Positions 2,062-53,049 of a stretch of 64,000 nucleotides of DNA are shown here, piece by piece. Position 1 is the first letter of the stretch. The number at the start of each line of letters is the position of its first letter. The DNA lies in the NCBI GenBank assembly GCA_036276175.1, contig DATBEH010000040.1, positions 1,935-65,934 of the forward strand. Direction: 5' to 3'. The DNA is from Lichenihabitans sp. (GTDB taxonomy: Bacteria; Pseudomonadota; Alphaproteobacteria; Rhizobiales; Beijerinckiaceae). Below the pieces are notes generated by a model. It worked only from the letters and a program-made list of their open reading frames with translations. It was not told where the DNA came from and did not search any database. The translations under genes were made by a program, and so were the position numbers.

Positions 2062-4488
2062 CTATTCGGCGGCGGCGGACCGGCCTTTCCGAGCATCGCC
2101 GGGCTCGGCCTCCCTGGCCTTGGCGCTCAGCCAGGCATCGAGCTTGTCGAGCGCGGGGCTGGTCACGGTCGGCGGGGCGGGCGCTGCAATCAGCCCCATC
2201 TGCTTGAAGCCGGCATAGATCTCGAACAGCAGGTCGCTCGTGACCCGCGTGGCCCCGTCGACATCCTCGACGTAACAGATGAGCTCCAGGTGGATGTGCG
2301 TCTCCGTCATGGCGGTGAAGAAGAGCTGCGGCGTCGGGATGGCGAGGACCAGGTCGTGCGCCTTGGCGGTCTTGACCAGCATGGTCCGAATGTCTTCCGG
2401 GTCGGTCGTCACCGGCAGGACGAAGGGCAGGTCGATGCGGCCGATGCGGTCGTTGCGCACCCAGTTCTTGACCGTGCCGGTGACGAGGCTCGCATTGGGC
2501 ATGACGACGAGGGCGCGGTCGAAGGTCTCGATCTCGGTCGAGCGCACGTTGATGCGCCGCACGTAGCCCTGCTCGCCGCCGACCGTGATCCGATCGCCGA
2601 CCCGCACCGCCCGCTCCCACAGCAGGATCAGCCCGGAGACGAAATTATTGGTGATCGTCTGCAGGCCGAGACCGATGCCGACCGACAGGCCGCCGGCCAC
2701 GATGGTGAGCTTCTCGAGCCCGACGCCCATGTGAGCCAGGCCGACCGCCAGCGCGAGCACGGCGCCGACATAGCCGAGCGAGGTCTTGATCGAGTTGCGC
2801 AGGCCGGCGTCGAGCTTGGTGTGCGGCAGATACTTGACGTCGAGCCAACGCTGCAGGGTGCGCGTGGCGCCGATGCAGAAGGCGAACAGCAGGATCGAGA
2901 CGACGATCGTCGAGATCGAGATGGTGACGTCGCCGACCGAGAAGCCGAAGAAGGCGGCGTTCAGGGTGGCGAGCATATCGCCCGATTCGAACTGCCAGGG
3001 CGCCAGCACCAGCAGCACGGTCGCCACATAGAGCACGATCTTGGCGAGGCCGGCGAACAGAATGCCAATCTGCTCCAGCGTGGCGGCGCGCAGGCCCATG
3101 CCGGCGATCAGCATCCGGCCGAGGCCGCCCTTGGGCCGGAGCGCGAAGGCGATCCCTTCGTCGGCCAGCGTCAGCAGGATGTAGAGGAGTGCCAGCGTGC
3201 CTGCGACGGCGATGACCTGCTCGACCAGGAACGAGGCGAAAGCCACATAGCCGATCACGACCGCGCCGATCAGCGCGGCGATGACCGACCAGGCGATCAA
3301 CCGCAGGATCGTCGTCCAGTGGTTCATCTGCGGCGTGCGGACCATGTCCTTGATCGCCGCCGCGGCTCGATGCGCCTTGCGGGTCTCGAGCAGCAGGACG
3401 ATCGCCACCGCGAGGGCGCCGAGGCCGCGCGTCGCCACCGCCGTCGGCACGGCGACGCCGATCAGCTCGTTGAGCGCCTCGACGAGCTTCTGCACGGCGA
3501 CCACGACCGAGACCGAGATGGTCACGTGGTAGAGCGTCTTGGCGCCGATGTCGGAGAGCGGGACCAGACGCCAGTTCGGGCTCTTCGGCGCCAGCAGGCC
3601 GCGGCTGATCCCGGTCATCACGGCCACGACCGCAACGCCGATCGTCAGGGCATGCCCGATCTGCTGGAACTGGGTCGGCAGGCCGAAGAGCTCGACGAGA
3701 CCGCCGAGCGCCAGCACCGCGAGGATCGGCACGCTCGCCGTGGCGGCAGCGACCCGGATCGCCGCCAGGGCCTTGCGCAGGCGGCTCGGGTCGGCGGTCT
3801 CCCCCCGGCTGCGGATGCGGCACGCGACCAGCCACGACGGCCAGTAGAGCAGCGCCAGCGCGGCGAGAAGTCCGCCGAGACCGCCGCGCTGCAGGCCCGA
3901 CAGCCTGTTCCACGAGGCCTCGGTGAAATCGACGGTCAGTGTCGACAGGGCGCGGTAGTCCGAAGGCAGGTCGGCGACGACACCGCTCCACAGGGCCGGG
4001 CTGAAGAGGCTGGCCGAGCGGGCCAGCAGCGCGTGGGTGAAGAGCGCCCGGCGGCGCGCCACGAGCCCGTCGCTGATCTGACCCGCCTGCACGGCGAGCA
4101 CCCTGGCGCGTTTGACCGCCGCGTCGAGGTCGTCGAAGAGCTTCTGTTGCGCGGACCGTTCCTTCGACACGTCCGCGGGCTCGGGCGGCGCCTTGGGGTC
4201 GGGGGCCGGGCCGAGCTGGGTCAGGCGCGCCTTGACCGCGTCGACCCGGGGCGCCAGTTCCGCGGCGATGCCGGTGGCCTGGGCGGCGACCGGGTCGATC
4301 TCGTTGCGCAGCGCCACGAGCGTCGCGTCGGACAGGTCGCCGCGTCCCAGCCGGGCCTCGACGCCGTCGATCGTGGCCTTCAGCGCATCGAGCTTCGCGC
4401 CGGCGCTCGGCGACACCTGCTCCTGCGCCAGGGCAGGGGGCAAGGCCAGGAAGACCAGAGCCAGCAGAGCGAGAGCCAGTTGCCGCAA
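2062..4488 (-). CDS. Large MscS-family mechanosensitive channel with periplasmic N-terminal domain (DUF3772-like)
   Basis: Signal peptide, coiled-coil region, many TM helices and MscS core GLSVGIGLGLQ...NFVSGLILLWER..VGD. Confidence 0.92.
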   Translation of the reverse strand: MRQLALALLALVFLALPPALAQEQVSPSAGAKLDALKATIDGVEARLGRGDLSDATLVALRNEIDPVAAQATGIAAELAPRVDAVKARLTQLGPAPDPKAPPEPADVSKERSAQQKLFDDLDAAVKRARVLAVQAGQISDGLVARRRALFTHALLARSASLFSPALWSGVVADLPSDYRALSTLTVDFTEASWNRLSGLQRGGLGGLLAALALLYWPSWLVACRIRSRGETADPSRLRKALAAIRVAAATASVPILAVLALGGLVELFGLPTQFQQIGHALTIGVAVVAVMTGISRGLLAPKSPNWRLVPLSDIGAKTLYHVTISVSVVVAVQKLVEALNELIGVAVPTAVATRGLGALAVAIVLLLETRKAHRAAAAIKDMVRTPQMNHWTTILRLIAWSVIAALIGAVVIGYVAFASFLVEQVIAVAGTLALLYILLTLADEGIAFALRPKGGLGRMLIAGMGLRAATLEQIGILFAGLAKIVLYVATVLLVLAPWQFESGDMLATLNAAFFGFSVGDVTISISTIVVSILLFAFCIGATRTLQRWLDVKYLPHTKLDAGLRNSIKTSLGYVGAVLALAVGLAHMGVGLEKLTIVAGGLSVGIGLGLQTITNNFVSGLILLWERAVRVGDRITVGGEQGYVRRINVRSTEIETFDRALVVMPNASLVTGTVKNWVRNDRIGRIDLPFVLPVTTDPEDIRTMLVKTAKAHDLVLAIPTPQLFFTAMTETHIHLELICYVEDVDGATRVTSDLLFEIYAGFKQMGLIAAPAPPTVTSPALDKLDAWLSAKAREAEPGDARKGRSAAAE

Positions 4489-4549
4489 ATCTACACCTTC
4501 CCGTCACGACGCGGCGGACCTCGCCGTTCGGCTCCGGACCGTCCGGTCC

Positions 4550-5605
4550 TCAATAGAGCGGATCGAGGCGTACCGGCGTCTTGAACGGTCCGATCGACAT
4601 CCGACCGTCGGCGAGGGTCACCGGCAGGGGAATGGCTCCGATCATCGACTTCCCTGGCTCGGACGATTTGCGTCCGAGCAGACCGGCCAGGGCACCGCCG
4701 ACCGACACGGCGTGGAGCGGCAATCCCAGGCGGGTCGCGACGCTCTCGTAGCCCGAGACCGCGGTCTGCAGACGGCCGCTCAGCCGGTGCTCCGCATCGA
4801 GCCCGAGCACCCCCTGCGCCTCTGCCTTCAGGTCACCCTTGGTCAGTTTCAGCGTATCGAGATCGAAGGCGCCGCCGCCCTGGCGCCATCGCTCGAGCAG
4901 CCGCGGCCAAGGCTCGAACGCCGTGTCCTGAACCGCCGTGACGACCCCCCGCTGTTCGACCGAGAGCGGATCGGGCGTCCCCAGAACGGCGTCGAGGGCC
5001 GGACACGCGGCGTCGAAAAGGTCGAGCCAGATTTCGTAGGCCCGGTCCGCCGGCGGCCGGGACGGTGCCGGCCCGGCGCGCAATTCCGCATGACGGACGC
5101 GGTTCGTGCGGCCATCGGCACCGGTCGCCGTCAGGTCGTCGGCCACCAGCGCGACGCGGGCGCGATCGTCCGAGAGCAACCTCGCCTCGATCAGCAAGGC
5201 GGCCCAGTTCGCCGCCATATCGCCCTCGCCCTCGCGCGTGAGGGTGAGGGGACCTCTGATCCAGGCGTCGACCGCCTTGGGCTGGTAGAGCACGACCTCG
5301 GCATCGAGCGCGCCGAAGGTCGCCGTCACCTCGACTCCGCCCACCTTGCCGCTGAAGGCCGGATGGGTGCAGGAGATGTGCAGGTCGAGGGGGAAGCCGG
5401 CGATGGTGCGGTTGGGGCATGACCAATCGCGGCCGTGCGTCGCCTCGGACGCCATCCACCGGTCCATGCGGCTGGCGGCTTCATAGCGGGCGAACAGCCA
5501 GAGAGCCGACCAGCCGACCACCAGGATCGTCAGCGACAGCAGGCACAGCGACAGCCAGGGCCGGCGTCGGCGGCCGGTCCGTAGGACGAGCGTATCGAGC
5601 GTCAT
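4550..5605 (-). CDS. DUF2125 family protein
   Basis: N-terminal TM anchor WSALWLFA, IAGFPLDL, ending GPFKTPVRLDPLY; usual neighbour of chaC; start set at ATG 5605. Confidence 0.8.
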   Translation of the reverse strand: MTLDTLVLRTGRRRRPWLSLCLLSLTILVVGWSALWLFARYEAASRMDRWMASEATHGRDWSCPNRTIAGFPLDLHISCTHPAFSGKVGGVEVTATFGALDAEVVLYQPKAVDAWIRGPLTLTREGEGDMAANWAALLIEARLLSDDRARVALVADDLTATGADGRTNRVRHAELRAGPAPSRPPADRAYEIWLDLFDAACPALDAVLGTPDPLSVEQRGVVTAVQDTAFEPWPRLLERWRQGGGAFDLDTLKLTKGDLKAEAQGVLGLDAEHRLSGRLQTAVSGYESVATRLGLPLHAVSVGGALAGLLGRKSSEPGKSMIGAIPLPVTLADGRMSIGPFKTPVRLDPLY

Positions 5606-5736
5606 GGCGCCTCGCCGGGCGGGGCGACATCGGTGCGCCGACTTGACGCGGCGCCATCTTTCCCGCGAAGCAGGCGATGCCGCCACCGCCGAGCGGTCGG
5701 CGGGGCGAGGCTGGGCCCGAAACGGAGAGAACGACG

Positions 5737-6336
5737 ATGCCGCAAGCGGGCGCCGATCGGGACCTGTGGATCTTCGCCTACGGCTCTTTGATGTGGCGTC
5801 CCGATTTCGCCTATGCGGAGCGGCGAAGAGCGCGCGTCTACGGCTTCCATCGGGCCCTCTGCATCTATTCGCACCACTGGCGCGGCACCGCGGAGCGTCC
5901 GGGCCTGGTGCTCGGCCTCGACCGCGGCGGCTCCTGCGTTGGACTGTGCTTTCGTATCGCACGAGAGGCGTCGGCCGCAACCCTCGCCGCGGTCCGCGAG
6001 CGCGAACTGGTGACCGGGGTTTACGAGGAAATTGCGGCGCCCGTGCGCCTCGAGCATGGAGAGCGCCTCATGGCGCTGACCTATGTGGCCCGTCGCGGCC
6101 ACGCCCAATATGCCGGCGGACTGCCGGCGGCCGAACAGGCGCGGCTGGTCCGCCAGGGTCGCGGCATCGCCGGCTCGAACCTCGACTATATCCGCAATAC
6201 CTGCCGCCACCTCGAAGACCTCGGCATCCGCGACGCGCGGCTCGGCGGTCTGACGGCCGCGGTCACATCCCCCGTAGCTGGCTCAGGCGAGGCCGAGCAG
6301 CGCCCGGCCGGCATCGGTGAGGACATAGAGCACTGA
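5737..6336 (+). CDS. chaC: Gamma-glutamylcyclotransferase (ChaC-like)
   Basis: LWIFAYGSLMWRP, RGTAERPGLVLGLDRGGSC, G.N.DY motifs. Confidence 0.92.
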   Translation: MPQAGADRDLWIFAYGSLMWRPDFAYAERRRARVYGFHRALCIYSHHWRGTAERPGLVLGLDRGGSCVGLCFRIAREASAATLAAVRERELVTGVYEEIAAPVRLEHGERLMALTYVARRGHAQYAGGLPAAEQARLVRQGRGIAGSNLDYIRNTCRHLEDLGIRDARLGGLTAAVTSPVAGSGEAEQRPAGIGEDIEH

Positions 6337-6549
6337 GACGCCGCCGCGGATCTCCTTCGGCGGATCGACGATCAACGCCCGGCACCAGCCGCGCTTGACG
6401 CAGCGCCCGATCGGCCCGGCGCTGATCTGGCGCGGGCCGCCGAGCAGGGTGCGCATGAGGGCGATTTCCGCCTGCCGGGGGCCGCGGCGGGTTGTGGAGC
6501 GGCGTGACAGCGGCAGGGTTTCGTCTCCGTCTCGAACGCGCTGCAGCAT
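6283..6549 (-). CDS. Small hypothetical protein, possible winged-helix
   Basis: Ends VKRGWCRA...YVLTDAGRALL, a wing-type motif; overlaps the chaC 3' end by 54 bp; start uncertain. Confidence 0.4.
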   Translation of the reverse strand: MLQRVRDGDETLPLSRRSTTRRGPRQAEIALMRTLLGGPRQISAGPIGRCVKRGWCRALIVDPPKEIRGGVSVLYVLTDAGRALLGLA

Positions 6550-6640
6550 CGTTCGCTTTCCCGTCGCCCGCGGATCCGGCGGACCCGCAACTTTTGTCGC
6601 GTCTCCAGCGTCTTCGCTCAACACGGCGTAATTGTGTTAG

Positions 6641-6657
6641 AACGATACGGTTACGTT
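6641..6657. promoter_or_regulatory. Imperfect palindrome, putative TetR operator
   Basis: AACGATACGGTTACGTT is dyad-symmetric and lies about 95 bp upstream of the TetR gene. Confidence 0.5.
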
Positions 6658-6750
6658 ATGTTATCGGCCTCGGGGTCGACCGGGTGTCGCGGTTCACGTT
6701 GGAGCCACGGGCAGGCTCGGCCGACGCACACGACGGGAAAGCGCGACACC

Positions 6751-7419
6751 ATGGCGGAGGCGGCGGTCAGGACGCGGCGCGGGGCAGGGGGCCGCCCCAC
6801 GCGTGAGGAGGCAGTCCGGCGTGAGGAACGCGTGCTCGACGTCGCGTCCGCCATGTTCCTGGACCACGGGTTCGACGGCACGGCGATCGATGCGATTGCC
6901 GCGAGGGCCGGCATCGGCAAGCCGTCGCTCTATGCGCGCTACGGTGACAAGCAAGGCCTGTTCATCGCCGTGCTGCGCCGCCGGCTCAAGCAATGGATCA
7001 GACCCTTCGCCGGGCTGACCCCCGACCATGACCGGCCCCTTGGGCGGGCGCAGGTCCGCGAGGTGCTGGAATCCTTCGGCCGGCACATCGTCGACGGCTG
7101 CCTGAAACCCGAGACGATCGCGCTCGGCCGTATCCTCACCTCGGAGGCCACGCGCTTTCCGGAGCTCGCGCGCGTCCTGCACGAAGAGGGCTGGATGCAG
7201 GGCGTTCGCTGCCTCGCCGCCTTCCTCGAACAGGCGATCGATTTCTCGAAGAGCGAGGTCGGCGATCCGGAGCTCGCGGCCGACCTGTTCTTCAGCTTGA
7301 TGCTCGGCCGGCTGTCACGCCAGGCGCTGCTCGGCATCCCGGTCGATCCGTGCACCCTCGACGCCCGCGTCGAGGCGGCGGTGGCGATCTTCCTCGGTTC
7401 AGGCTTTGCCTTGCGGTAA
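6751..7419 (+). CDS. TetR/AcrR family transcriptional regulator
   Basis: F..HGFDGTAIDAIAARAGIGKPSLYARYGDKQGLF HTH; C-terminal E..RFPELA. Confidence 0.93.
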   Translation: MAEAAVRTRRGAGGRPTREEAVRREERVLDVASAMFLDHGFDGTAIDAIAARAGIGKPSLYARYGDKQGLFIAVLRRRLKQWIRPFAGLTPDHDRPLGRAQVREVLESFGRHIVDGCLKPETIALGRILTSEATRFPELARVLHEEGWMQGVRCLAAFLEQAIDFSKSEVGDPELAADLFFSLMLGRLSRQALLGIPVDPCTLDARVEAAVAIFLGSGFALR

Positions 7420-7757
7420 CGTTGACAGCGGCCGACCAGACTCTTCAGATCGGCACAGTTCGCAAGATCGGACCGAACGTGTCGAACACTATACGGCCCG
7501 ATTCGCCGCCGCCGAACCGAAATGTGGCCCCGTCTGTGCCACGTGACCTGCGACGCCTCGAATTTTCGAGCGAACTTACAGGGCAGCGACGAATCTATAC
7601 ACAAAATAATTTAGCAAGCTAAGAGCCTATCGCGTCTCACGATTTTTTTAATGAATCGTATTTTCTTAAATTGCCATCTTTGTGAACAATAATCCATCAA
7701 CCATTCGGTAATTATCGTTAATTATCTACTTATTATGAAGACCAAACAGGCGCGACC

Positions 7758-8225
7758 ATGAACTGTTTTCGTCACCTCAAAGTCCTAGTCGTCGACCATG
7801 ACCCCATATTCCCGATACTTACACGGGAGTTTCTCAAGCTTATCGGATTCGAATCCGTAAGTACTGCCAGCGATGTCGTCCAAGCAATCGATATTGTGAC
7901 GACTGATCGGCATGATGTGGTGATCGTGGAAGACGAGAAGGCATACGATGGTCTGCTCGATGTCTTGCGACGACGGCAACACAAGGATTGTCTCATCCTG
8001 ACGTGTGCTTTCGCTCGGAGCGACGAACACGTCCTGAAGCCGATCAAAGGTGGAACCGACGGTTTCATCGGCAAGCCGTTCACGCCGTCGATGCTCCATC
8101 GATCGCTGACGGCAGCGTTGGCCGGCCCCGCCGGGCGTCGCCTCAAGGTCGTGGATCTCTCGGCGGTGCGCAGGTCCAACCGGAGCGTCGCCGCATCCTC
8201 CGGGCGCGGAGGCCTCGCCCGATAG
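7758..8225 (+). CDS. Single-domain response regulator (atypical receiver)
   Basis: LKVLVVDHD...DVVIVED...LT...FIGKPF receiver fold; lower GC than neighbours, AT-rich upstream. Confidence 0.8.
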   Translation: MNCFRHLKVLVVDHDPIFPILTREFLKLIGFESVSTASDVVQAIDIVTTDRHDVVIVEDEKAYDGLLDVLRRRQHKDCLILTCAFARSDEHVLKPIKGGTDGFIGKPFTPSMLHRSLTAALAGPAGRRLKVVDLSAVRRSNRSVAASSGRGGLAR

Positions 8226-8409
8226 CCGCGAACGCGTCGGCGCCACGTGGGGCAATCGGGTGAAGCTTCCTCCCCTGCGCAGCGGATGAATGGGGGAGGA
8301 CGCGCCGTGCCTCCTTTACCCGATTGCCCTGCGACGCCGCGTGTCCGCGATTGACTTTGGTCGGAACGGTCCGGTAGATCGCCCGGCCCGCCGCTCAAGC
8401 CCGCATCGG

Positions 8410-9597
8410 ATGACCTCCACCTCTCGACCCTCCGCGGGCCTGTCGCCCGTCGATCGCGCCGCGACCATCGTGGCCCATGACGGCGATCACGCCTTCGAGG
8501 CGGTGGTGCCGCCGATCGTCCAGACGTCGCTCTTTACCTTCGCCTGCGTCGCCGACATGCGCGACACCTACGCGGGCCGCAAGAGGCGGCCGGTCTATTC
8601 GCGCACCACCAACCCGACGGTCGAGGCCTTCGAGGCCAAGATGGCGGCGCTCGAAATGACCGATGCGGCCATCGGCTTCCCCTCCGGCATGGCGGCCATT
8701 TCCGGCGCGGTGCTGGCCTTCGTCGAGCCCGGCGATCGCATCGTCGCGGTGCGCCATCTCTATCCCGATGCCTACCGCCTGTTCGAGACGCTGCTGAGGC
8801 GCCTGCGCGTTACCGTCGATTACGTCGACGGCAACGATCATGCGGCGGTCGAGCGCGCCCTTCCCGGCGCCAGGCTGTTCTACATGGAGAGCCCGACCTC
8901 CTGGACCATGGAGGCGCATGACGTCGGCGCCCTGGCGGCCCTCGCCAGGCGGCACGGCGCGCTGAGGCTCATCGACAACAGCTGGGCGACGCCGGTCTTC
9001 CAGCAGCCGGCGGCGCTCGGCGTCGACCTCGTCATCCATTCGGCCTCGAAATATATCGGCGGCCATTCCGACACGGTGGCGGGCGTCGTGGCGGGCCGCG
9101 CCGACCTCATCGACACCATCCGCCGCACCATCTGCCCCTATATCGGGGCCAAGCTCGCGCCGTTCGAGGCTTGGCTGCTGCTGCGCGGGCTGCGCACGCT
9201 TCCCGTGCGCATCGTCCAGCACCAGGGATCGGCGATGATGATCGCCCAACGCCTGCACGATCATCCGGCCGTCACCGCGGTTTTTCATCCCGGGCTGCGC
9301 GGCCCGCTGCCCCCCGGCCTCTACGGCACCTCGGGCCTATTCTCCTTCACGGTCGACGGCTCGATCGACATTCCGCGCTTCTGCGACGCGTTGCGCTATT
9401 TCAAGCTCGGCGTCTCGTGGGGCGGCCACGAGAGCCTCGTCGTGCCGGCGCTCGTCGCCCGCGCCCAGGCGGCGGGTCCCAATTCGGCGCTCGATTTCGG
9501 CGTGCCCGACACGATGGTCCGGCTGCATGTCGGACTCGAAAACCCGGACGTCCTGTGGGAAGATCTCGCCAACGCCATGGGCGAGGCCCGCTTCTGA
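8410..9597 (+). CDS. PLP-dependent Cys/Met metabolism enzyme (cystathionine beta-lyase/gamma-synthase family)
   Basis: YSRTTNPT, SGMAAI, ESPTS, IDNSWATP, HSASKYIGGHSD (PLP lysine), LGVSWGGHESL, RLHVGLE. Confidence 0.93.
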   Translation: MTSTSRPSAGLSPVDRAATIVAHDGDHAFEAVVPPIVQTSLFTFACVADMRDTYAGRKRRPVYSRTTNPTVEAFEAKMAALEMTDAAIGFPSGMAAISGAVLAFVEPGDRIVAVRHLYPDAYRLFETLLRRLRVTVDYVDGNDHAAVERALPGARLFYMESPTSWTMEAHDVGALAALARRHGALRLIDNSWATPVFQQPAALGVDLVIHSASKYIGGHSDTVAGVVAGRADLIDTIRRTICPYIGAKLAPFEAWLLLRGLRTLPVRIVQHQGSAMMIAQRLHDHPAVTAVFHPGLRGPLPPGLYGTSGLFSFTVDGSIDIPRFCDALRYFKLGVSWGGHESLVVPALVARAQAAGPNSALDFGVPDTMVRLHVGLENPDVLWEDLANAMGEARF

Positions 9598-9619
9598 AGG
9601 CCGCATAGGGGGAGTTCCG

Positions 9620-10891
9620 ATGAAACGCCTGACCACGACACTCATGGCGGCGAGCGCGCTCGCCCTGCTTCTCGGCGCGCCGGCCCGGGCCGACACCACC
9701 CTCAAGCTGACCGAGGTGATCACCAGTCCCGAGCGGACCGACACGCTCAAGCAGATCGTCAAGACGTTCGAGGACGCCAATCCGGGCGTCCATGTCGAAA
9801 TCACCTCGCTGCCCTGGGGCCAGGCCTTCGAGAAATTCGCCACCATGGTCTCGGCGGGCGACACGCCCGACGTCGTCGAGATGCCCGACCGCTGGCAGGC
9901 GCTCTACGCCAACGGCGGCCGCCTCGAGAATCTCGAGCCCTATCTGGCCAAATGGGACCACACCGCCGAGCTCAACGAGCGCGCCCTGCAGATGGGCCGC
10001 TACGTCAAGAACACCGCCTACGCGCTGCCCTACGGTTTCTACCTGCGGGCCTTGTTCTACAACAAGATCCTGTTCAAGCAGGCCGGCGTCGATGCGCCAC
10101 CCAAGACGATGGACGAGTTCGTCGCGGCGGCCAAGAAGGTCTCCGCGCTGCCGGGCAAGTCGGGCTATTGCTTGCGCGGCGGCCCCGGCGGCCTCAACGG
10201 CTGGGTGATGTTCGCCGCGACGGAGGCCGGCTCCAACCAGTTCTTCAAGGAGGACGGCACCTCGACCTTCGCCGATCCGGGCTGGGTCAAGGGCGTCGCT
10301 TGGCTGGTCGATCTCTACAAGAACGGCTATGCGCCCTAGGACAGCGTGAACTGGGGCTTCAACGAGATCGTCGCCGGCTTCTATTCAGGCGCCTGCGCCA
10401 TGCTCGACCAGGACCCCGATGCGCTGATCGCCGTCGCCGAGCGCATGAAGCCCGAGGATTTCGGCGTGGCGCCGATGCCCAAGGGGCCGTCCGGCAAGGC
10501 TTTCACCACCATCGGCTATGCGAGCTGGTCGATGTTCGCCTCGAGCCAGCACAAGGACCTCGCCTGGAAGCTCATCGCCACGCTCGACGGACCCGAAGGC
10601 AACCTGACCTGGAACAAGCGCACCGGCGCCCTGCCGATCTACAAGTCCGCCGAGAAGGACCCGTTCTACGCGGGCGACCAGTTCAAGGGCTGGTTCCAGG
10701 AGCTGGCCGATCCGGACGTGGTGCCGACGGTGATGCCGACCTACCTCCAGGGCTTCGCCTATTTCGCCGATTCGCTCGCGGTCAAGACCAGCCAGCAGGC
10801 GCTGCTCGGCCAGATCAGCCCGGAGGAGATGGCCAAGCAATGGGCCGACTACCTCACCAAGCAGCAGAAGAAGTTCCTGGCGACCAAGTGA
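9620..10891 (+). pseudogene. CUT1 sugar ABC substrate-binding protein interrupted by in-frame TAG at 10337-10339
   Basis: One continuous frame from ATG 9620 to TGA 10891; ...KNGYAP-TAG-DSVNWGFNE... joins ORF-track entries 9527..10339 and 10346..10891. Confidence 0.85.
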
Positions 10892-10901
10892 GGGCCGACC
10901 A

Positions 10902-11028
10902 CCCCTCATTCGTCACCGCGCCGCGGTGCCAACTTCTCCCGCCGGAGGAGAAGGGCGATCCTCGTTCTGTGGCCCTGGCGCCCTTCTCCCCTTGCGGGAG
11001 ACGGTGGCGCGTAGCGCCGGATGAGGGG
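10902..11028. repeat. REP-like extragenic palindrome pair (CCCCTCAT...CTTCTCCC/GGGAGA...ATGAGGGG type)
   Basis: Terminal inverted CCCCTCAT/ATGAGGGG and two internal CTTCTCCC..GGAGA(A/C)GG hairpins. Confidence 0.8.
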
Positions 11029-11039
11029 CCGGCTCCCGC

Positions 11040-11969
11040 ATGACCACCCTTGCCGAGCCGCGCGCGCGGCGGCGCGAGGGCGGCCTGCGCCGTATGACGC
11101 TCCGCATCGAACCCTACGCCTATACGGCTCCGGCGCTGGTTCTGATCTGCGCCGTCATGCTGGTGCCGCTCGTCATCGGCTTGAGCTACGCCTTCCGCGA
11201 TATCACGCTGCTTGATCCGATGAGCGGCGATTTCGTCGGCCTCGATCATTTCCGCGACATCTGGAACGACCCCAATTTCTGGAACGCGCTGCGCAACACC
11301 GTCGTGTGGACCGTCGCCTCCGTGGTGCTGCAATTCGGGCTCGGGTTGGGGCTGGCGTTGCTGCTCAACCGGCCCTGTCCGGGCCGCGGCCTCATCCAGG
11401 CCCTGGTCTTCCTGCCTTGGGCGGTGCCGACCTTCCTGTCCGGCCTCAACTGGGCCTGGCTGTTCAATCCCGTCGTGGGGCCGATCCCGCACTGGCTCTA
11501 CGGGCTCGGTCTCGTCGCCGCGCCGAACAACATCCTGTCCGATCCCGCCCATGCGCTGTGGGGGCCGATCACGGCCAGCGTCTGGTGGGGCGTGCCGTTC
11601 TTCGCCATCACGCTGCTCGCGGCGCTGCAGTCGATCCCGGCCGACATCTACGAGGCCGCGGCGATCGACGGCGCTGGCGCCTTCGAGCGCTTCCGGTCGA
11701 TCACCGTGCCGTTCCTGGCCCCGACCGTCGCCATCACGGTGATGCTGCGCACCGTCTGGATCGCCAATTCGGCCGACCTCATCGTCGTCATGACGCGCGG
11801 CGGCCCGGCCGATTCGACCCAGATCTTGGCGAGCTACATCTTCACCCAGGCCTTCCAGCGGCTCGACTTCGGCTATGCCTCGGCGCTGGCCGCGGTCCTG
11901 CTGGTGCTGCTGCTCGTCTATGCGATGAGCATCGTGGCGCTTCGCCGCACCCTGATCCGGAGCCTGTAG
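11040..11969 (+). CDS. CUT1 ABC permease
   Basis: EAA loop LQSIPADIYEAAAIDGAGAFERFRSITVP; six TM helices. Confidence 0.93.
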   Translation: MTTLAEPRARRREGGLRRMTLRIEPYAYTAPALVLICAVMLVPLVIGLSYAFRDITLLDPMSGDFVGLDHFRDIWNDPNFWNALRNTVVWTVASVVLQFGLGLGLALLLNRPCPGRGLIQALVFLPWAVPTFLSGLNWAWLFNPVVGPIPHWLYGLGLVAAPNNILSDPAHALWGPITASVWWGVPFFAITLLAALQSIPADIYEAAAIDGAGAFERFRSITVPFLAPTVAITVMLRTVWIANSADLIVVMTRGGPADSTQILASYIFTQAFQRLDFGYASALAAVLLVLLLVYAMSIVALRRTLIRSL

Positions 11970-48091: not shown

Positions 48092-49402
48092 ATGCGCTTC
48101 ATCGCCGACCGGTTGCCGAAGCGCCTCTATTCGCGCGCCCTGCTGATCCTGGTGATCCCCATGGTGATCCTGCAATGCGTGATCGCCTATTTCTTCATGG
48201 AACGGCACTGGCAGTCGGTCACCTTCCGGCTGTCGCAGGCGCTGGTGCAGGACGTCTCGGCGCTGATCGACCTCCACCGCAGCTTGCCGCCGGGCGCCGA
48301 CGACGCGGTGCTGGAGCGCATCGGCTCCGACCGGCTCGGCCTCGACATCGATTTCCTGCCCAAGCAGTCGCTGCCGCCGGCGTTGCCGAAGCCGTTCTTC
48401 CTGCTGCTCGACCGGTCGTTGTCGAACGAGATCCGCAAGCAGATCGGCCTGCCCTTCTGGATCGATACCGTCGGGCGGTCGAACTTCATCGAGATCCGAG
48501 TCCAGCTCAACGATACGGTGCTGCGCGTCATCGCGCGCCGCAGCGCCGCCTACGCGTCGAACTCCTACATCTTCATTCTCTGGATGGTCGGCACCTCGGC
48601 CGTGCTGCTGGGAGTGGCGGTGCTGTTCCTGCGCAACCAGATCCGGCCGATCCTGCGCCTCGCGGTCGCGGCCGAGGACCTCGGCAAGGGCCGCTTCCGG
48701 GACTACCGGCCGAGCGGCGCGCTCGAGGTGCGGCGCGCCGGCTATGCGTTCCTCGAGATGAAGCGGCGCATCGAGCGCGCCATCGAGCAGCGCACCACCA
48801 TGCTCAACGGCGTCAGCCACGACCTGCGCACCATCCTGACCCGGTTCAAGCTGTCGCTCGAACTGCTCGACCAGGGCCAGGAAGGCGAGGCGATGCAAGG
48901 CGACGTCGACGAGATGGGGCGCATGCTCGAAGCCTATCTGGCCTTCGCGCGCGGCGACGGGGGCGAGAGCTCGGCGCTGACCGACATGCGGGCGCTGCTC
49001 GAACAGCTCAAGTCCGACGCCGAGCGCCACGGCCACGCGACGCGCATCGAGGTCGCGGGCGAGACGGCGGTGATCGTGCGGCCCGACGCCTTCAAGCGCT
49101 GCCTCGCCAACCTCGTCGGCAACGCGCAGCGCCACGGCAACAAGATCCAGCTCCAGGCGGCGCGCGACGGCCGCTTCCTCATCGTCCATGTCGACGACGA
49201 CGGACCCGGCATCCCGCCCGAAAAGCGCGAGGAGGTGTTCCGGCCCTTCTACCGGCTCGACGAGGCCCGCAACCAGGACCAGGGCGGCACCGGCCTCGGC
49301 CTCGCCATCGCGCGCGACATCGCGCGCTCGCACGGCGGCGACATCCAGCTCGGCGAGAGCCCGCTCGGCGGCCTGCGCGCCACGGTGCGCGTGCCGGTGT
49401 GA
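48092..49402 (+). CDS. EnvZ-like sensor histidine kinase
   Basis: Two TM helices, HAMP, GVSHDLRT H-box, NL..NA, DDDGPGIP, GTGLGL; start uncertain. Confidence 0.94.
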   Translation: MRFIADRLPKRLYSRALLILVIPMVILQCVIAYFFMERHWQSVTFRLSQALVQDVSALIDLHRSLPPGADDAVLERIGSDRLGLDIDFLPKQSLPPALPKPFFLLLDRSLSNEIRKQIGLPFWIDTVGRSNFIEIRVQLNDTVLRVIARRSAAYASNSYIFILWMVGTSAVLLGVAVLFLRNQIRPILRLAVAAEDLGKGRFRDYRPSGALEVRRAGYAFLEMKRRIERAIEQRTTMLNGVSHDLRTILTRFKLSLELLDQGQEGEAMQGDVDEMGRMLEAYLAFARGDGGESSALTDMRALLEQLKSDAERHGHATRIEVAGETAVIVRPDAFKRCLANLVGNAQRHGNKIQLQAARDGRFLIVHVDDDGPGIPPEKREEVFRPFYRLDEARNQDQGGTGLGLAIARDIARSHGGDIQLGESPLGGLRATVRVPV

Positions 49403-49533
49403 GGGGGTCCCGTTCACGGACCCTACTTGGACATTCGCATGTTCGGCTGCGAACGTCTGGTTGCACGGTAGCAGCGGCCACTCGGCTTGGTGCATAACTC
49501 AAGAATTACGCACGTTCGCACGGCTTAACGCGC

Positions 49534-50418
49534 TCAAGCGGGTTCGAGCAGACCGAAAGCCGAGACCAGACCGATCACCATAGCGCCAAGCACGATCTCG
49601 GTTATGGCGATGTCCCTTATGATGCGGGCGGCCGATCCTGAATGCGGGGCCAGCCGAGGCACGACGACATAGCGGTTGAGAAGAGCCAGGGCGACCATGG
49701 TCAGCACGAGGACGACCTTGATCGCGAGCAAGGCTTGGTAGGGCGAGGTCCAGTCTAGCGGCCATCGGCCCAGCACCAGTGCCGTATTGAGAATGCCGGT
49801 GGCGATCACGAGGGCTACCGCCCCGTGACCAGCCGCCGAAAACCGCCGCAGCGCCAATCCTGCCGCGCGATGGCTTTTCGGGTCGTCAAACGCCCGCAGG
49901 ATCGGCAGGAGGGGCACCAGCGCTCCGAACCATGCGCCGCCTGACAGCAGGTGCAGGCCATCGTTGAAACGGTGGGCCGCACCGAGCCATCCCTCACGCA
50001 TTACGGCATGACCGGTGAAGGTCAGCGCGATCAGAGCCAGCCCAGCTGCTGCCGCCGTTGCGATGCGCCGGGCCCGGACTGGCATCCAAAGTGTTGCGGC
50101 GAGCAGCACCGCCGCCCCGCCCTGGATTTGCCAGGCATGGCCGACACTGGTCTCGAACAGCACCGCCCGGAGCGTGACGGTATTCAGCGCGTCGTTCCAG
50201 CCGTCACCGATCATCGCGGTTTCGAGCGGGAGGGCCATGATCGTCGTGACGATCGCAAGAACGAGCGCACTGACCCGCAGGGTGTTCAGCCGCTCCGTGA
50301 CGTCAAGCGCCAGGTCTCGCGGCACCAGGGCCGCGAGATAGGCGAAGGCACCCCAAAGACCCAGCAGGGCCACGTCGTGAACGAAGCGGCCGATGCCCAG
50401 GGCTTCATCGGGCGTGAT
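49534..50418 (-). CDS. copD: CopD-family metal transport membrane protein
   Basis: TGHA..GWL..H..ND.LHLL.GGAW.GAL, RRFS..GH..VA.V..TG..N; frame extends to ATC at 50418 overlapping the copC stop; first canonical start is GTG 50373. Confidence 0.88.
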   Translation of the reverse strand: MTPDEALGIGRFVHDVALLGLWGAFAYLAALVPRDLALDVTERLNTLRVSALVLAIVTTIMALPLETAMIGDGWNDALNTVTLRAVLFETSVGHAWQIQGGAAVLLAATLWMPVRARRIATAAAAGLALIALTFTGHAVMREGWLGAAHRFNDGLHLLSGGAWFGALVPLLPILRAFDDPKSHRAAGLALRRFSAAGHGAVALVIATGILNTALVLGRWPLDWTSPYQALLAIKVVLVLTMVALALLNRYVVVPRLAPHSGSAARIIRDIAITEIVLGAMVIGLVSAFGLLEPA

Positions 50419-50789
50419 CAGGGCTTAACCGTGAATTTGTAACTGCCGCTGGTCTTGTGCCCATCGGTGGAGAGCGCGTGCCAGCTGACCGTATAGGTTC
50501 CGGCCGAAAGCGGCGCAGAGACCGGCACCACGAGCGTCGTGTCGCCGCCGGCGCCCAGGCTCGCGTCGCCGGTCGCGACAGCTTTCTTGCCGGGTCCCGT
50601 CACCTTGACGCCGGTGAACTTCAGGTTGAGACCTTCCGAAAACATGAGGTCGAGCTCGGAAGGAGCTGCCGCGACCGTTTCCCCCATGGGCGGAGTCGCC
50701 GACTTCAGATGCGCGTGAGCGAAGGCCTGGCCGGTCAGGGCGATGAAGCAGAGAGCCGCGAGACCGGACGTATGCGTAAGCGTTGTCAT
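50418..50789 (-). CDS. copC: CopC periplasmic copper-binding protein
   Basis: Signal peptide ...AFA-HAHLKSATP (N-terminal His), YTVSWHALSTDGHKTSG.Y.F.V. Confidence 0.94.
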   Translation of the reverse strand: MTTLTHTSGLAALCFIALTGQAFAHAHLKSATPPMGETVAAAPSELDLMFSEGLNLKFTGVKVTGPGKKAVATGDASLGAGGDTTLVVPVSAPLSAGTYTVSWHALSTDGHKTSGSYKFTVKP

Positions 50790-50882
50790 GATGAGATCCT
50801 CGAATATGCCGACCGGCACACCGACGTCATTCAAGCGCGTTGTGAGAGCGGTCGGACTGAAAAGGAATCGGGGCGTGTCAGA

Positions 50883-51257
50883 TCACGCCGCCGGAGGACC
50901 CTGAGATTGACGAGGCGTACGCAGGCGCGCAAGGAGGGGCACCCACGCGACAGCGGTCGTATGCCGCGCAAAATGCGTAACGGACACTGGCCCGGTGAGC
51001 GGCAGGGGGTCCGCCAGCACAACCGGGACCAGAAGGGCGCAGGCATCGCAGCAATCGTGATGTGACGGAGTGCCGGGCACCGACCTGTCGCCCGCACCCG
51101 TGTGGCAGATCGGCGCTGCAACGGCTCCGGCGCCGAAAGCGGGAGACCCGAAATCACACGCCATCGCGAGACTTCGTCCGGCGCCGGCCAGCGTCAGGAC
51201 GAGGATCAGGAACGAAGAGACGAGGTGCCGCAGCGTGACGGCCCGATGATCGGTCAC
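50883..51257 (-). CDS. DUF2946-like Cys/His metal-binding membrane protein
   Basis: N-terminal TM helix, ICH, HHDCCDAC, C-terminal RQSQGPP (RAPP-like); start uncertain. Confidence 0.75.
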   Translation of the reverse strand: MTDHRAVTLRHLVSSFLILVLTLAGAGRSLAMACDFGSPAFGAGAVAAPICHTGAGDRSVPGTPSHHDCCDACALLVPVVLADPLPLTGPVSVTHFARHTTAVAWVPLLARLRTPRQSQGPPAA

Positions 51258-51310
51258 GGCCGGAGACGAGACCAGCGGCACCTCTCTGTCAAGAGGCGCA
51301 GCGCCGCGGC

Positions 51311-52375
51311 TCAGGCGCGGGTTGCCGTATGCACCTCCGCAGCATCCAAGCCTTTGAGCTTATAGACCGCATAGGAGATCACCCAGGCGAGGATGAACAC
51401 GCCGATGATGGCGAAGCCGAGATTGTTGAAGTTGTCGTTCAGCGCGCCAACGCCATCCCAGAATCCGCCCTTCAGGTCGAGTTGATCGCCGACCAGACCG
51501 AGCGCCTCGATGCCGCCGATCAGGACGGCCACGACCACCGAAACCAGCGTAATGGTCATGTTGTAGTAGAGCTTCCGCATCGGCTTGACGAAGGCCCAGT
51601 CGTAGGCGCCGAGCATCATCACCCCGTCCGTGGTGTCGATCAGCGACATGCCTGCCGCAAACAGCACCGGGAATACCATGATGGCGCTGATCGGAATGCC
51701 CTTGGCGGCCTGGGCCGCCGAGACACCGAACATGGCAATTTCGGTCGCGGTGTCGAACCCGAGACCAAAGAGAAAGCCCAGCGGGAACATGTGCCAGCTT
51801 TTGGTCACGAGCCGGAACAGCGGCCGGAAGATGCGCGCCAGGAATCCTCGGTTGTTGAGCAGGATGTCGAGATCCTCCTCGACATAGCTGCCTCCGGCGC
51901 GAACCCGGCGGTAGCTCTTATAGATCGAGGAGAAAATGAAGATGTTCATCACCGCGATGGCGAGGAGGAACAGAGCCGAGATGCTGGTGCTGATCGTGCC
52001 GCCGACGCTCTGAAAACTCTGGAAGGTGCCCATCATGGTCGCCGCCCCAGCGACCGCTGCGGCGACGAAGATCACGATCGTCGAATGGCCCAGGGCAAAG
52101 AAGAACCCGACCGAAACGGGCCGCTGCTTCATTTGCATCAGCTTACGCGTCACGTTGTCGATGGCGGCGATGTGGTCGGCATCGACCGCATGGCGAAGGC
52201 CTAGGCCGTAGATGACCAGCGCGACGCCGAGGAGCGTCGGGTTGCCGTGGAACGCGATGAGCGCCCATGACCATGCCCCGACATTCAGCAGGGCAAGGAC
52301 AGCATAGATGGCAACGAGGCGGCCTTTGAGATCGGGCGTGCTCTCGTTGAAGAGCCGCTTGATGGTTGTCAGCAT
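51311..52375 (-). CDS. NiCoT (HoxN/HupN/NixA/NhlF family) Ni/Co permease
   Basis: Signature GLRHAVDADHIAAIDN, FFALGHS, FLFGLGFDTATE. Confidence 0.95.
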   Translation of the reverse strand: MLTTIKRLFNESTPDLKGRLVAIYAVLALLNVGAWSWALIAFHGNPTLLGVALVIYGLGLRHAVDADHIAAIDNVTRKLMQMKQRPVSVGFFFALGHSTIVIFVAAAVAGAATMMGTFQSFQSVGGTISTSISALFLLAIAVMNIFIFSSIYKSYRRVRAGGSYVEEDLDILLNNRGFLARIFRPLFRLVTKSWHMFPLGFLFGLGFDTATEIAMFGVSAAQAAKGIPISAIMVFPVLFAAGMSLIDTTDGVMMLGAYDWAFVKPMRKLYYNMTITLVSVVVAVLIGGIEALGLVGDQLDLKGGFWDGVGALNDNFNNLGFAIIGVFILAWVISYAVYKLKGLDAAEVHTATRA

Positions 52376-52479
52376 GGAGGTTTCTGCCTTTGACGTCTCA
52401 AGTCATCGCAGGAACTCGTCCCACTCTTGTGGGATTCGCACGCCAGGACACCCCGCCCGGCGTTTCCGCTTTGACGTCC

Positions 52480-52655
52480 GTGATGGCAGGTCTCCTGGCT
52501 CGCGGGTCGGTGCCCCCTTCGCCTTCCCGGGTCCATGTGGCCCAGTGGCTTCGTGAAAGAAGCTCGTCGCTTACAGTTGCGGGGACAGCCGCGGCGTTGG
52601 ACGTTGCCGCCCGCGCCGCATTCCCTTTTGAGCCCTCGCGGGCACCATCTGCGCT
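52480..52655 (-). ncRNA. Cobalamin (B12) riboswitch
   Basis: Minus strand shows GGTGCC...AAAAGGGAAT.CGG...GCCGCGGCTGTCCCCGCAACTGTAAGCG...GCCACTG...GGGAAGG...GAGCCAGGAGACCTGCC, the conserved B12-box elements. Confidence 0.93.
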
Positions 52656-52699
52656 ACGATAACGGGCTGACATGGCCACGGTCAACGTGGCAAGGTCTG

Positions 52700-52765
52700 G
52701 TAACCATCACGATGGATGATTCCTTGCTGGTCGAGCTGGATGCGCTCGTGGCGCGCAAAGGGACA
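52700..52765 (+). pseudogene. nikR: nikR N-terminal (ribbon-helix-helix) remnant
   Basis: VTITMDDSLLVELDALVARKG closely resembles the NikR start R-V-T-I-T-(L/M)-D-D..L..ELD....RG; no intact start or metal-binding domain follows. Confidence 0.65.
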
Positions 52766-53049
52766 ACGGCGACGTTGCGTAAATCAAAAGCTGCGCACCG
52801 CTTCCGGTGACGAGCGACATCAAGGCGTTGCTCTGTGCAAAACTTCGGTGCGGATGTCCGCTGATGGATCGGCAAGCCGACGTCCCTCGGCGACTGCGCC
52901 ATCGGCTGCTTCCCACCCCCATCGGGCCTCCGACGCAAGTCCCACGCGTCCGGTTTCCGCCACCGGCATGGATCGGGCCGCCGGTTTGCCGTAGAGGTCG
53001 GCGGGCGGCCGCTGTCCGGGCGACGCGCACCATGGCACGATGGGACGGC

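Follow-up and report, generated by a model that had tools for sequence, protein, structure and literature searches.

Organization of the locus

The window analyzed here, a 64,000-nucleotide stretch of DNA from Lichenihabitans sp. (assembly GCA_036276175.1, contig DATBEH010000040.1, positions 1,935 to 65,934), carries on its minus strand a cobalamin (B12) riboswitch followed by four genes: a NiCoT permease gene, a small open reading frame (ORF2), copC, and copD. At issue is how these genes are controlled and which metal they serve. A first-pass annotation of the sequence had placed all four on the minus strand downstream of the riboswitch, with gaps of about 50, 90, and 0 nucleotides (nt), an arrangement borne out by Rfam and profile matches and by the measured distances: 53 nt from the NiCoT stop codon to the GTG start of ORF2 (29 nt to the first in-frame GTG of the longer open frame), 93 nt from the ORF2 stop codon to copC, and a 4-nt overlap between copC and copD. 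The features of the locus are as follows.

52656..52685, minus strand: promoter-like site TTGACC-18 nt-TATCGT, 5' of the riboswitch (sigma-70-like pattern)
52468..52664, minus strand: cobalamin riboswitch aptamer, RF00174 (Rfam, full length)
52376..52467, minus strand: expression platform of 92 nt, from the aptamer to the NiCoT ATG
51311..52375, minus strand: NiCoT permease gene, HoxN/NixA family (PF03824, TIGR00802)
51286..51291, minus strand: -35-like TTGACA, the ORF2 box (conserved in homologous loci)
50883..51257, minus strand: ORF2, putative CruR/CutF-like (divergent DUF2946) leader peptide of 124 amino acids (aa)
50872..50889, minus strand: predicted hairpin GGCGUG-AUCUGA-CACGCC, whose 5' arm contains the ORF2 stop codon
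50790..50882, minus strand: ORF2-copC spacer of 93 nt, with 31 C versus 22 G, carrying the copC Shine-Dalgarno sequence GAGGAUC
50418..50789, minus strand: copC, periplasmic Cu(II)-binding protein (NF033814)
49534..50421, minus strand: copD, inner-membrane copper importer component (NF033808)
49509..49522, minus strand: terminator-like hairpin with a T-rich tail, 12 nt past the copD stop codon

Regulators of the CopRS/CusRS or CueR type were not found adjacent to the locus, and the neighboring MarR gene and two-component system are not copper-type regulators. The latter, which is convergent with the locus, was considered as a copper regulator and rejected as EnvZ/OmpR-like (TIGR01386, 105.9 bits against a cutoff of 292.55).

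ORF2 as a candidate copper-sensing leader peptide

The reading frame of ORF2 spans positions 50883-51281 (132 aa), and initiation at GTG 51257 would yield the 124-aa product. The first-pass annotation had called this product DUF2946, the one weak point of its description, because the PF11162 score of 16.9 bits (E = 0.011) falls below the gathering score of 23.7. All 15 aligned members of the ORF2 family match essentially PF11162 alone (best E = 3e-4), and a large protein database contains 28 homologues. Overall identity within the family is only 40 to 62%, with an invariant core comprising ICH, HDCCDxCA, and Gly-Pro-Pro (GPP); the remainder of the C-terminal segment AR.R[TS]PRQSQGPP[AT]A-stop is nearly invariant.

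These conserved positions recall a known class of regulatory peptides. In Bordetella pertussis, the upstream ORF CruR (Bp2923) encodes an exported peptide whose nascent chain senses copper through a CxxC motif, and copper relieves ribosome arrest at a C-terminal RAPP motif, leading to Rho-dependent termination in a long spacer that precedes genes for copper uptake; the 45-residue spacing from CxxC to RAPP is conserved across the family, and genes of this type stand first in operons with TonB-dependent transporters, PepSY_TM, PCuAC, Sco, YcnI, and CopC (PMC9426467). In Rhodobacter capsulatus, stalling on CutF opens a stem that hides the ribosome-binding site of the next gene (PMC9973294; bioRxiv 10.1101/2025.02.05.636593).

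The N terminus of ORF2, judged from a hydropathy window and the alignment, resembles a signal peptide, with a positively charged stretch, a hydrophobic core (LILVLTLAG), and A-x-A. Its CxxC is CDAC, at residues 78-81 of the 132-aa frame, with C78 and C81 invariant in the family, and QGPP occupies residues 127-130, followed by AA and the stop codon. The distance between the two motifs is exactly 45 residues, and the position of QGPP, two residues before the stop codon, is likewise invariant. Some relatives have RGPP at this position, and one (locus L069) has QAPP. As in CruR operons, ORF2 is the first gene of a set devoted to copper handling and is followed by a long spacer (93 nt in the window and 52 to 295 nt in relatives). 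The export signal, the CxxC, the 45-residue spacing, the Pro-Pro motif, and the matches to PF11162 alone lead us to read ORF2 as a putative divergent leader peptide of the CruR type in which the Arg of RAPP is replaced.

A conserved promoter-like box before ORF2

The hexamer TTGACA at 51291-51286 follows the NiCoT stop codon by 19 nt and precedes the ORF2 GTG by 29 nt. With a single exception, the homologous loci (about 20) have this hexamer, or one that differs from it at one base (TTGACT, TTGACC, or TTGACG), 29 to 30 nt upstream of an in-frame ATG or GTG, and the start codons so specified yield products of 122 to 128 aa. The exception is Faunimonas pinastri, for which a TTGACG box was seen in one version of the locus (L006) and ORF2 went undetected on a rescan of the other (L059). 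The background rate of the pattern TTGAC[ACGT]-N29/30-ATG/GTG is 4.5e-5 per nt, and the sequence around the box is otherwise unconserved, most homologous loci having unrelated upstream genes.

The distance from box to start codon equals the sum of a -35 hexamer, a 17-nt spacer, a -10 hexamer, and 6 to 7 nt, thereby placing the ORF2 start codon at the predicted transcription start, such that the mRNA would be leaderless or nearly so. The position of the box also makes GTG 51257 the likely start of ORF2. ORF2 therefore probably has its own promoter, as judged from the conserved spacing.

ORF2-copC-copD as a module in relatives

Leaders of the same family precede PCuAC and/or CopC(-CopD) in Lichenifustis, other Lichenihabitans, Lichenibacterium, Labrys, Faunimonas, and several metagenome-assembled genomes (MAGs), and the genes upstream of ORF2 in these relatives are unrelated. 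The gene order is ORF2-PCuAC-CopC-CopD in locus L039 and ORF2-CopC-CopD in locus L040. Among the loci drawn from representative genomes (L044-L059), PCuAC and/or CopC(-CopD) lies downstream of ORF2 in 16 of 16, and NiCoT lies upstream in only 1 of 16, this being L054, the locus of a congener of the window's genome (G007). An Rfam search found no riboswitch near the ORF2 homologues in L001-L006. In a second congener (G019), ORF2 heads PepSY_TM-CopC-SCO1-CopD, a set of copper and cytochrome-oxidase genes. Across these genomes, ORF2-(PCuAC)-CopC-CopD normally appears as a stand-alone copper module.

The genome containing the window has a second copper module, on the minus strand of contig C159 (549-2765), consisting of a different DUF2946-like leader, PCuAC, CopC, and CopD. 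This leader (121 aa) contains CCQHGCC, ends in ...RSTRGPPPAA-stop, and has neither a Pfam match nor a TTGACA-N29 box; the contig ends about 550 nt past copD.

RNA-level signals at the 3' end of ORF2

In 12 of 20 loci, the UG of the ORF2 stop codon is predicted to be part of a helix of 5 bp or more; shuffling of the noncoding half (300 trials) gave such a helix in 3.5 loci on average and in no more than 9. The stems differ in sequence (GGCGUG/CACGCC in the window, CGCGUG/CACGCG in L044, and extended stems of 8 to 9 bp in L047 and L052). Downstream of the stop codon, C outnumbers G in the spacers of 16 of 17 homologous loci, as expected of a Rho loading site. The arrest-like motif (50886-50900 in the window) employs rare codons, Gly being encoded by GGT in 11 of 20 loci and the first Pro by CCT in 9 of 20; within their codon families, genomic usage is 6.6% for GGT and 4.6% for CCT, and binomial P values for these codons overstate the case because the loci are related.

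In the minimum-free-energy fold of the window, GGUCCUC, which contains the Gly-Pro-Pro codons, pairs with GAGGAUC, the Shine-Dalgarno sequence of copC. Such pairing of Gly-Pro codons with the ribosome-binding site was considered as a universal feature and rejected: it is present in the window, L053, and L040 and is lacking from most loci, making it a local feature only. The stop-codon hairpin, the GPP codons, and the beginning of the spacer would all lie within the footprint of a paused ribosome, which fits either a CruR mechanism (Rho) or a CutF mechanism (unmasking of the next ribosome-binding site).

These features bear on whether ORF2 might instead have no regulatory role and be an exported protein that is stable, binds copper, and acts alongside CopC and CopD. 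Its signal-peptide-like N terminus, its conserved Cys and His residues (ICH, HHDCCDAC), and its length, 124 aa being long for a leader peptide, are what such a protein would display. However, the most conserved part of ORF2 is the extreme C terminus (...PRQSQGPPAA-stop), the rare codons and stop hairpin are features that act at the level of RNA and ribosome, and the fixed 45-residue spacing fits the distance from the ribosome tunnel to the translocon. Bp2923 is 145 aa, and its protein went undetected in proteomics (PMC9426467). We regard such a nonregulatory role for ORF2 as quite unlikely.

CopC and CopD

The product of copC matches the equivalog NF033814 (124.2 bits against a cutoff of 95). 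Cleavage at AFA|HAH(L) would expose an N-terminal His on the mature protein, and D-G-H (in STDGHKT) lies near the C terminus. These Cu(II) ligands, the N-terminal His and D-x-H, are kept in every CopC examined, whether or not NiCoT is adjacent, and the possibility that CopC proteins adjacent to NiCoT have an altered metal site was rejected on this basis. CopC thus looks, from its sequence, like a canonical Cu(II)-site protein.

CopD matches the equivalog NF033808 (252.8 bits against a cutoff of 195). The copD frame extends without interruption to a CTG, the inferred start, which shares bases with the copC stop codon (CTGA); the first canonical start is GTG 50373, use of which would cost 16 conserved N-terminal residues. 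At the overlapping position relatives have ATG, GTG, TTG, or CTG, and since the CTG is shared by L057 and L106, it looks like a tolerated reinitiation codon and not a lesion.

The B12 riboswitch and the NiCoT gene

The aptamer matches RF00174 over the whole model (positions 1-189 of 189) with 118.6 bits (gathering score, 31.5) and E = 3.9e-29, and it contains the B12 box AGCCAGGAGACCUGCC. Upstream, TTGACC-18-TATCGT is the only sigma-70-like match in 49300-52900 and is placed to start the leader RNA of the riboswitch. No U-tract terminator was found in the 92-nt expression platform (52376..52467), and AACCUCC, just 5' of the NiCoT AUG, is paired in the minimum-free-energy fold. We infer that control of NiCoT by the riboswitch is translational, possibly followed by Rho-dependent termination. 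On the plus strand, at 52535-52810, a 91-aa ORF contains VTITMDDSLLVELDALVARKG and appears ribbon-helix-helix-like by eye, with no Pfam or NCBIfam match.

The permease itself matches PF03824 (E = 1.9e-102; 342.9 bits) and TIGR00802 (407.7 bits against a cutoff of 333). Signatures of the NiCoT family (TC 2.A.52) are RHAxDADHI in transmembrane segment 2 (TM2), FxxGHSxxV in TM3, LGxDTxxE in TM5, and GMxxxDxxD in TM6 (PMC7689651), and all four can be read in the translation, as RHAVDADHI, FALGHSTIV, LGFDTATE, and GMSLIDTTD. Judged by the presence of a B12 riboswitch or cob genes as opposed to NikR, hydrogenase, or urease genes, the genomic context is that of a cobalt-preferring transporter, with a B12 riboswitch before the gene and a cob operon in the genome. 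The only other strong cobalamin riboswitch in this genome (92.3 bits) is on contig C152, in a minus-strand region (3318-11648) where it heads DUF1636-cobW-cobN-cobG-like-cobH-precorrin methylase, indicative of the aerobic pathway and the CobNST chelatase route. A NiCoT paralogue with 58% identity is encoded on contig C140, and no riboswitch was found at this paralogue or at its orthologues in the genus.

We surveyed the 80 closest NiCoT loci in representative genomes with a covariance model (R1) built from four related riboswitch aptamers. R1 locates a B12 riboswitch directly upstream of most of the 80 NiCoT genes (63 matches at E <= 0.01), and riboswitch-NiCoT is thus a widespread unit in its own right. 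The first-pass proposal that the riboswitch governs a NiCoT cobalt importer is supported by this survey and by the cob operon, and because the genome encodes an aerobic B12 pathway to which it would supply cobalt, the NiCoT of the window is best read as a B12-repressed cobalt importer.

In G007, a Lichenihabitans MAG, the riboswitch before the orthologous NiCoT has decayed to a remnant that scores 26 bits with R1 (L036, 9760-9921), and no Rfam cobalamin match was found upstream of this gene even at E = 1; NiCoT-ORF2-copCD is nevertheless intact. The G019 genome has a second cobalamin riboswitch (100.9 bits; in the region L035, 12264-14839), divergent from its NiCoT riboswitch, heading a Peripla_BP_2/FecCD pair that resembles a BtuF/BtuC-like B12 ATP-binding cassette importer.

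Copper modules in the neighborhood of NiCoT genes

Of the 80 NiCoT loci, 16 have CopC, CopD, or PCuAC no more than 5 kb away when all orientations are counted, against a chance expectation of about 0.5, given two modules in 4.78 Mb. The same-strand order NiCoT, leader, (PCuAC), copC, copD occurs in five cases: the window, G019, L069, L106, and G007. The locus from an uncultured alphaproteobacterium (L069) has a riboswitch and a leader ending in ...SQAPPIA. The Jiella locus (L106) also has a riboswitch, and its NiCoT is followed by a hairpin, TTGGCA-N30-ATG, and a leader that ends in ...PRGPPFLSA. The first-pass annotation had proposed a survey of how often copCD follows a NiCoT gene with a B12 riboswitch. 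It does so in the window, G019, L069, and L106, but always with an intervening leader ORF that has its own promoter-like box, which is also the case in G007, where the riboswitch has decayed.

Other arrangements occur as well. Copper genes precede NiCoT on its own strand in Mesorhizobium (L061 and L093), are convergent with NiCoT in L066, L068, L086, L091, L107, and L117, and are divergent from it in L104, L108, and L136. In a further congener (G022; L140, 6324-9556), which is not among the 80, the riboswitch-NiCoT pair and PCuAC-CopC-CopD converge, their stop codons only 3 nt apart. Its copper module is the orthologue of the module on contig C159 and not of that in the window, such that two different copper modules stand beside a riboswitch-NiCoT pair within one genus.

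Copper adjacency is scattered over the NiCoT tree, with 16 state changes for 18 adjacent taxa, similar to shuffled labels. The window NiCoT is sister to that of Methylovirgula (Shimodaira-Hasegawa-like support, 97) and 85% identical to a Mesorhizobium protein, and the NiCoTs of its congeners fall in other subclades of the free tree, which also scatters the window, G019, G007, and L069. This grouping with Methylovirgula, apart from the congeners, suggests that the riboswitch-NiCoT cassette moves between alphaproteobacterial families; an approximately unbiased (AU) test still allows a single clade of window, G019, and G007, with or without L069 (P = 0.19 and 0.11). Independent origins of the NiCoT-ORF2 junction in these four are for that reason not claimed.

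The neighborhood of NiCoT and copper genes is therefore nonrandom, yet because all orientations occur, cotranscription cannot be its general basis. Cotransfer within trace-metal islands would be the simplest account. Locus L039, which also carries znuABC, cobW, and a metallothionein gene, would be an example of such an island. No mention of a NiCoT-CopCD link was found in the literature searched, in which the enrichment of copper-uptake modules around B12-controlled cobalt permeases is not described.

The first-pass annotation had joined all four genes into one B12-repressed metal operon in which DUF2946, CopC, and CopD aid cobalt uptake or offset competition between copper and cobalt. The genes are co-oriented behind the riboswitch, NiCoT and copper modules adjoin more often than by chance, and some CutF-like leader peptides do precede Ni/Co genes (PMC9973294). 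The leaders linked to Ni/Co genes, however, are His-only, whereas ORF2 is Cys-rich (CxxC), and leaders of the ORF2 family precede the copper-specific PCuAC, SCO1, and PepSY_TM. Moreover, the His-brace Cu(II) site of CopC is unchanged, the module mostly occurs without NiCoT or a riboswitch, and the leader has a conserved promoter-like element of its own. A single cobalt-directed operon is consequently very unlikely. With a putative promoter and a putative copper-sensing leader peptide of its own, copCD is not suggested to act on cobalt, and the sequences offer no support for such a role.

Another possibility retains a copper function for copCD and adds B12 as a second input: a transcript from the riboswitch promoter would read through NiCoT into ORF2-copCD, whose output would then be set both by B12, through the amount of read-through RNA, and by the copper gate of the leader peptide, coupling the supply of cobalt and B12 to that of copper. 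The lack of a recognizable terminator, the mere 19 nt from the NiCoT stop codon to the ORF2 -35 box, the equally tight NiCoT-ORF2 junctions in G007 and L069, and the presence of copper modules within 5 kb of 16 of 80 NiCoT loci (versus about 0.5 expected) would all accord with such a composite. Against it, the neighborhood is not tied to one orientation (the copper genes being convergent in G022, L068, and L117, divergent in L104 and L108, and upstream in L061 and L093), and the gene order persists in G007 although the riboswitch there has decayed. The ORF2 GTG would also lack a Shine-Dalgarno sequence on a read-through RNA, and the 5' part of ORF2 is C-rich and G-poor, so that an untranslated leader would be open to Rho termination. 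We view control of copCD by both inputs as unlikely, and it is slightly more unlikely still that the adjacency itself is functional, with the riboswitch and leader peptide, having no terminator between them, acting in series on one transcript. Were this so, serial sensors would tie cobalt and B12 to copper supply, for example to balance copper against cobalt or to match B12 demand to copper-dependent respiration.

A probable pair of units with separate sensors

With moderate confidence, we favor two adjacent units with separate sensors, in which B12 would be sensed by RNA for the control of cobalt import and copper by a nascent peptide for the control of copper import. The fixed distance of the -35 box from ORF2 in all but one of about 20 loci, together with a module that usually stands alone, argues against the single B12-repressed operon proposed at first. 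Nor would a copper-sensing regulator be missing, as the first-pass annotation had held: by analogy with CruR (PMC9426467) and CutF (PMC9973294), ORF2 itself would be a copper-responsive cis-regulator of a known type. The intact Cu(II) site of CopC, matching that of its relatives, and the G019 leader that heads PepSY_TM-CopC-SCO1-CopD likewise speak against the use of CopCD for cobalt. That copC is under its own copper-responsive control, the situation that the annotation had named as fatal to its model, is what the sequence evidence favors.

The first unit would comprise the promoter, a riboswitch of the adenosylcobalamin (AdoCbl) type, and NiCoT. When B12 is ample, NiCoT would be switched off, probably by a block to translation initiation and possibly by Rho termination thereafter; when B12 is scarce, cobalt would be imported for the aerobic cobalamin pathway of the genome. 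The second unit would comprise its own promoter, ORF2, copC, and copD, on a transcript that is leaderless or nearly so, with copCD insulated from B12. During its translation and export, the CxxC of ORF2 would sense periplasmic copper, altering pausing at ...PRQSQGPPAA-stop. A ribosome paused there would mask the hairpin over the stop codon, the GGUCCUC that can pair with the copC Shine-Dalgarno sequence, and the first part of the C-rich spacer, and in this state copC and copD would be translated and Rho would be unable to load on the spacer. By analogy with CruR, copper would relieve the pause and turn copCD off, such that CopC and CopD are made at low copper. CopC would bind periplasmic Cu(II) and pass it to CopD for import.

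Several observations weigh against this reading. The PF11162 score of ORF2 is below the gathering threshold, and the arrest motif is QGPP in place of RAPP, with Pro-Pro kept and Arg replaced. The -10 region that accompanies the ORF2 box is weak (TCGTCT, with no A at -11), so the promoter activity is putative, and half of the ORF2 family starts with GTG. For leaderless translation in Escherichia coli, GTG is a poor start codon. A simple scan of the NiCoT-ORF2 gap found no terminator in either the window or G019, which is weak evidence in a high-GC genome; with the -35 box just 19 nt past the NiCoT stop codon, read-through from the riboswitch promoter is physically likely. The NiCoT-ORF2 junction is kept in at least four genomes (window, G019, G007, and L069), and the enrichment of copper modules near NiCoT hints at a link beyond two units. 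Finally, the direction of the presumed copper response is taken from CruR, and CutF works in the opposite direction.

If the two-unit reading is correct, the attractive idea that CopCD was recruited for cobalt is probably wrong, and the "missing" copper regulator is the small ORF2. The ORF2 family would add a divergent subfamily to CruR/CutF, distinguished by QGPP, a start codon at the predicted transcription start, a stop-codon hairpin, and rare Gly-Pro codons, features that offer handles on how leader peptides pause ribosomes. The enrichment of copper modules near B12-controlled NiCoT genes provides a lead on cross talk between the handling of two trace metals.

Comparison with known systems

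B12-riboswitch-controlled NiCoT cobalt permeases are a well-known arrangement (PMC7689651, PMC2667541), and the first unit shares its features: a full-length aptamer about 90 nt before NiCoT, the four signatures, and a genome with aerobic cob genes. There is no material difference from the systems described in those reports.

CopC and CopD resemble YcnJ of Bacillus subtilis and YobA-YebZ of E. coli (PMC8689200, PMC12362106) and the pcuABCDE products of Bradyrhizobium (PMC6669012) in the N-terminal His and D-x-H site of CopC, in having CopD as a membrane partner whose gene appears to be translationally coupled to copC, and in the PCuAC and SCO1 partners present in relatives of the locus. Unlike these import pairs, the copy in the window is without PCuAC or SCO1, a second and complete module is on contig C159, and control would be exerted by a leader peptide and not by a YcnK-type or CsoR-type repressor.

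The closest parallel to the second unit is cruR-crtA(bfrG)-bp2921 (PMC9426467, PMC12914433), with which it shares a putatively exported peptide with a CxxC, the 45-residue spacing, Pro-Pro near the stop codon, a position at the head of copper-acquisition genes (the usual partners including CopC, PCuAC, and PepSY_TM), and a long C-rich spacer. It differs in that ORF2 has QGPP plus two residues whereas CruR has RAPP plus three, and in that the ORF2 start codon falls at the predicted transcription start whereas the Bordetella 5' untranslated region is 45 nt. ORF2 further differs in its conserved stop-codon hairpin, in its subthreshold Pfam score, in being followed by copC-copD with no TonB-dependent transporter, and in sitting behind a riboswitch-controlled NiCoT. 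With the cutFOG leader the second unit would share a cotranslationally exported, copper-sensing peptide, a C-terminal proline motif, and an mRNA stem able to hide the next ribosome-binding site until opened by a paused ribosome. CutF, however, turns on a copper-detoxifying oxidase at high copper, whereas ORF2 precedes copper-uptake genes, and the opposite polarity would therefore be expected.

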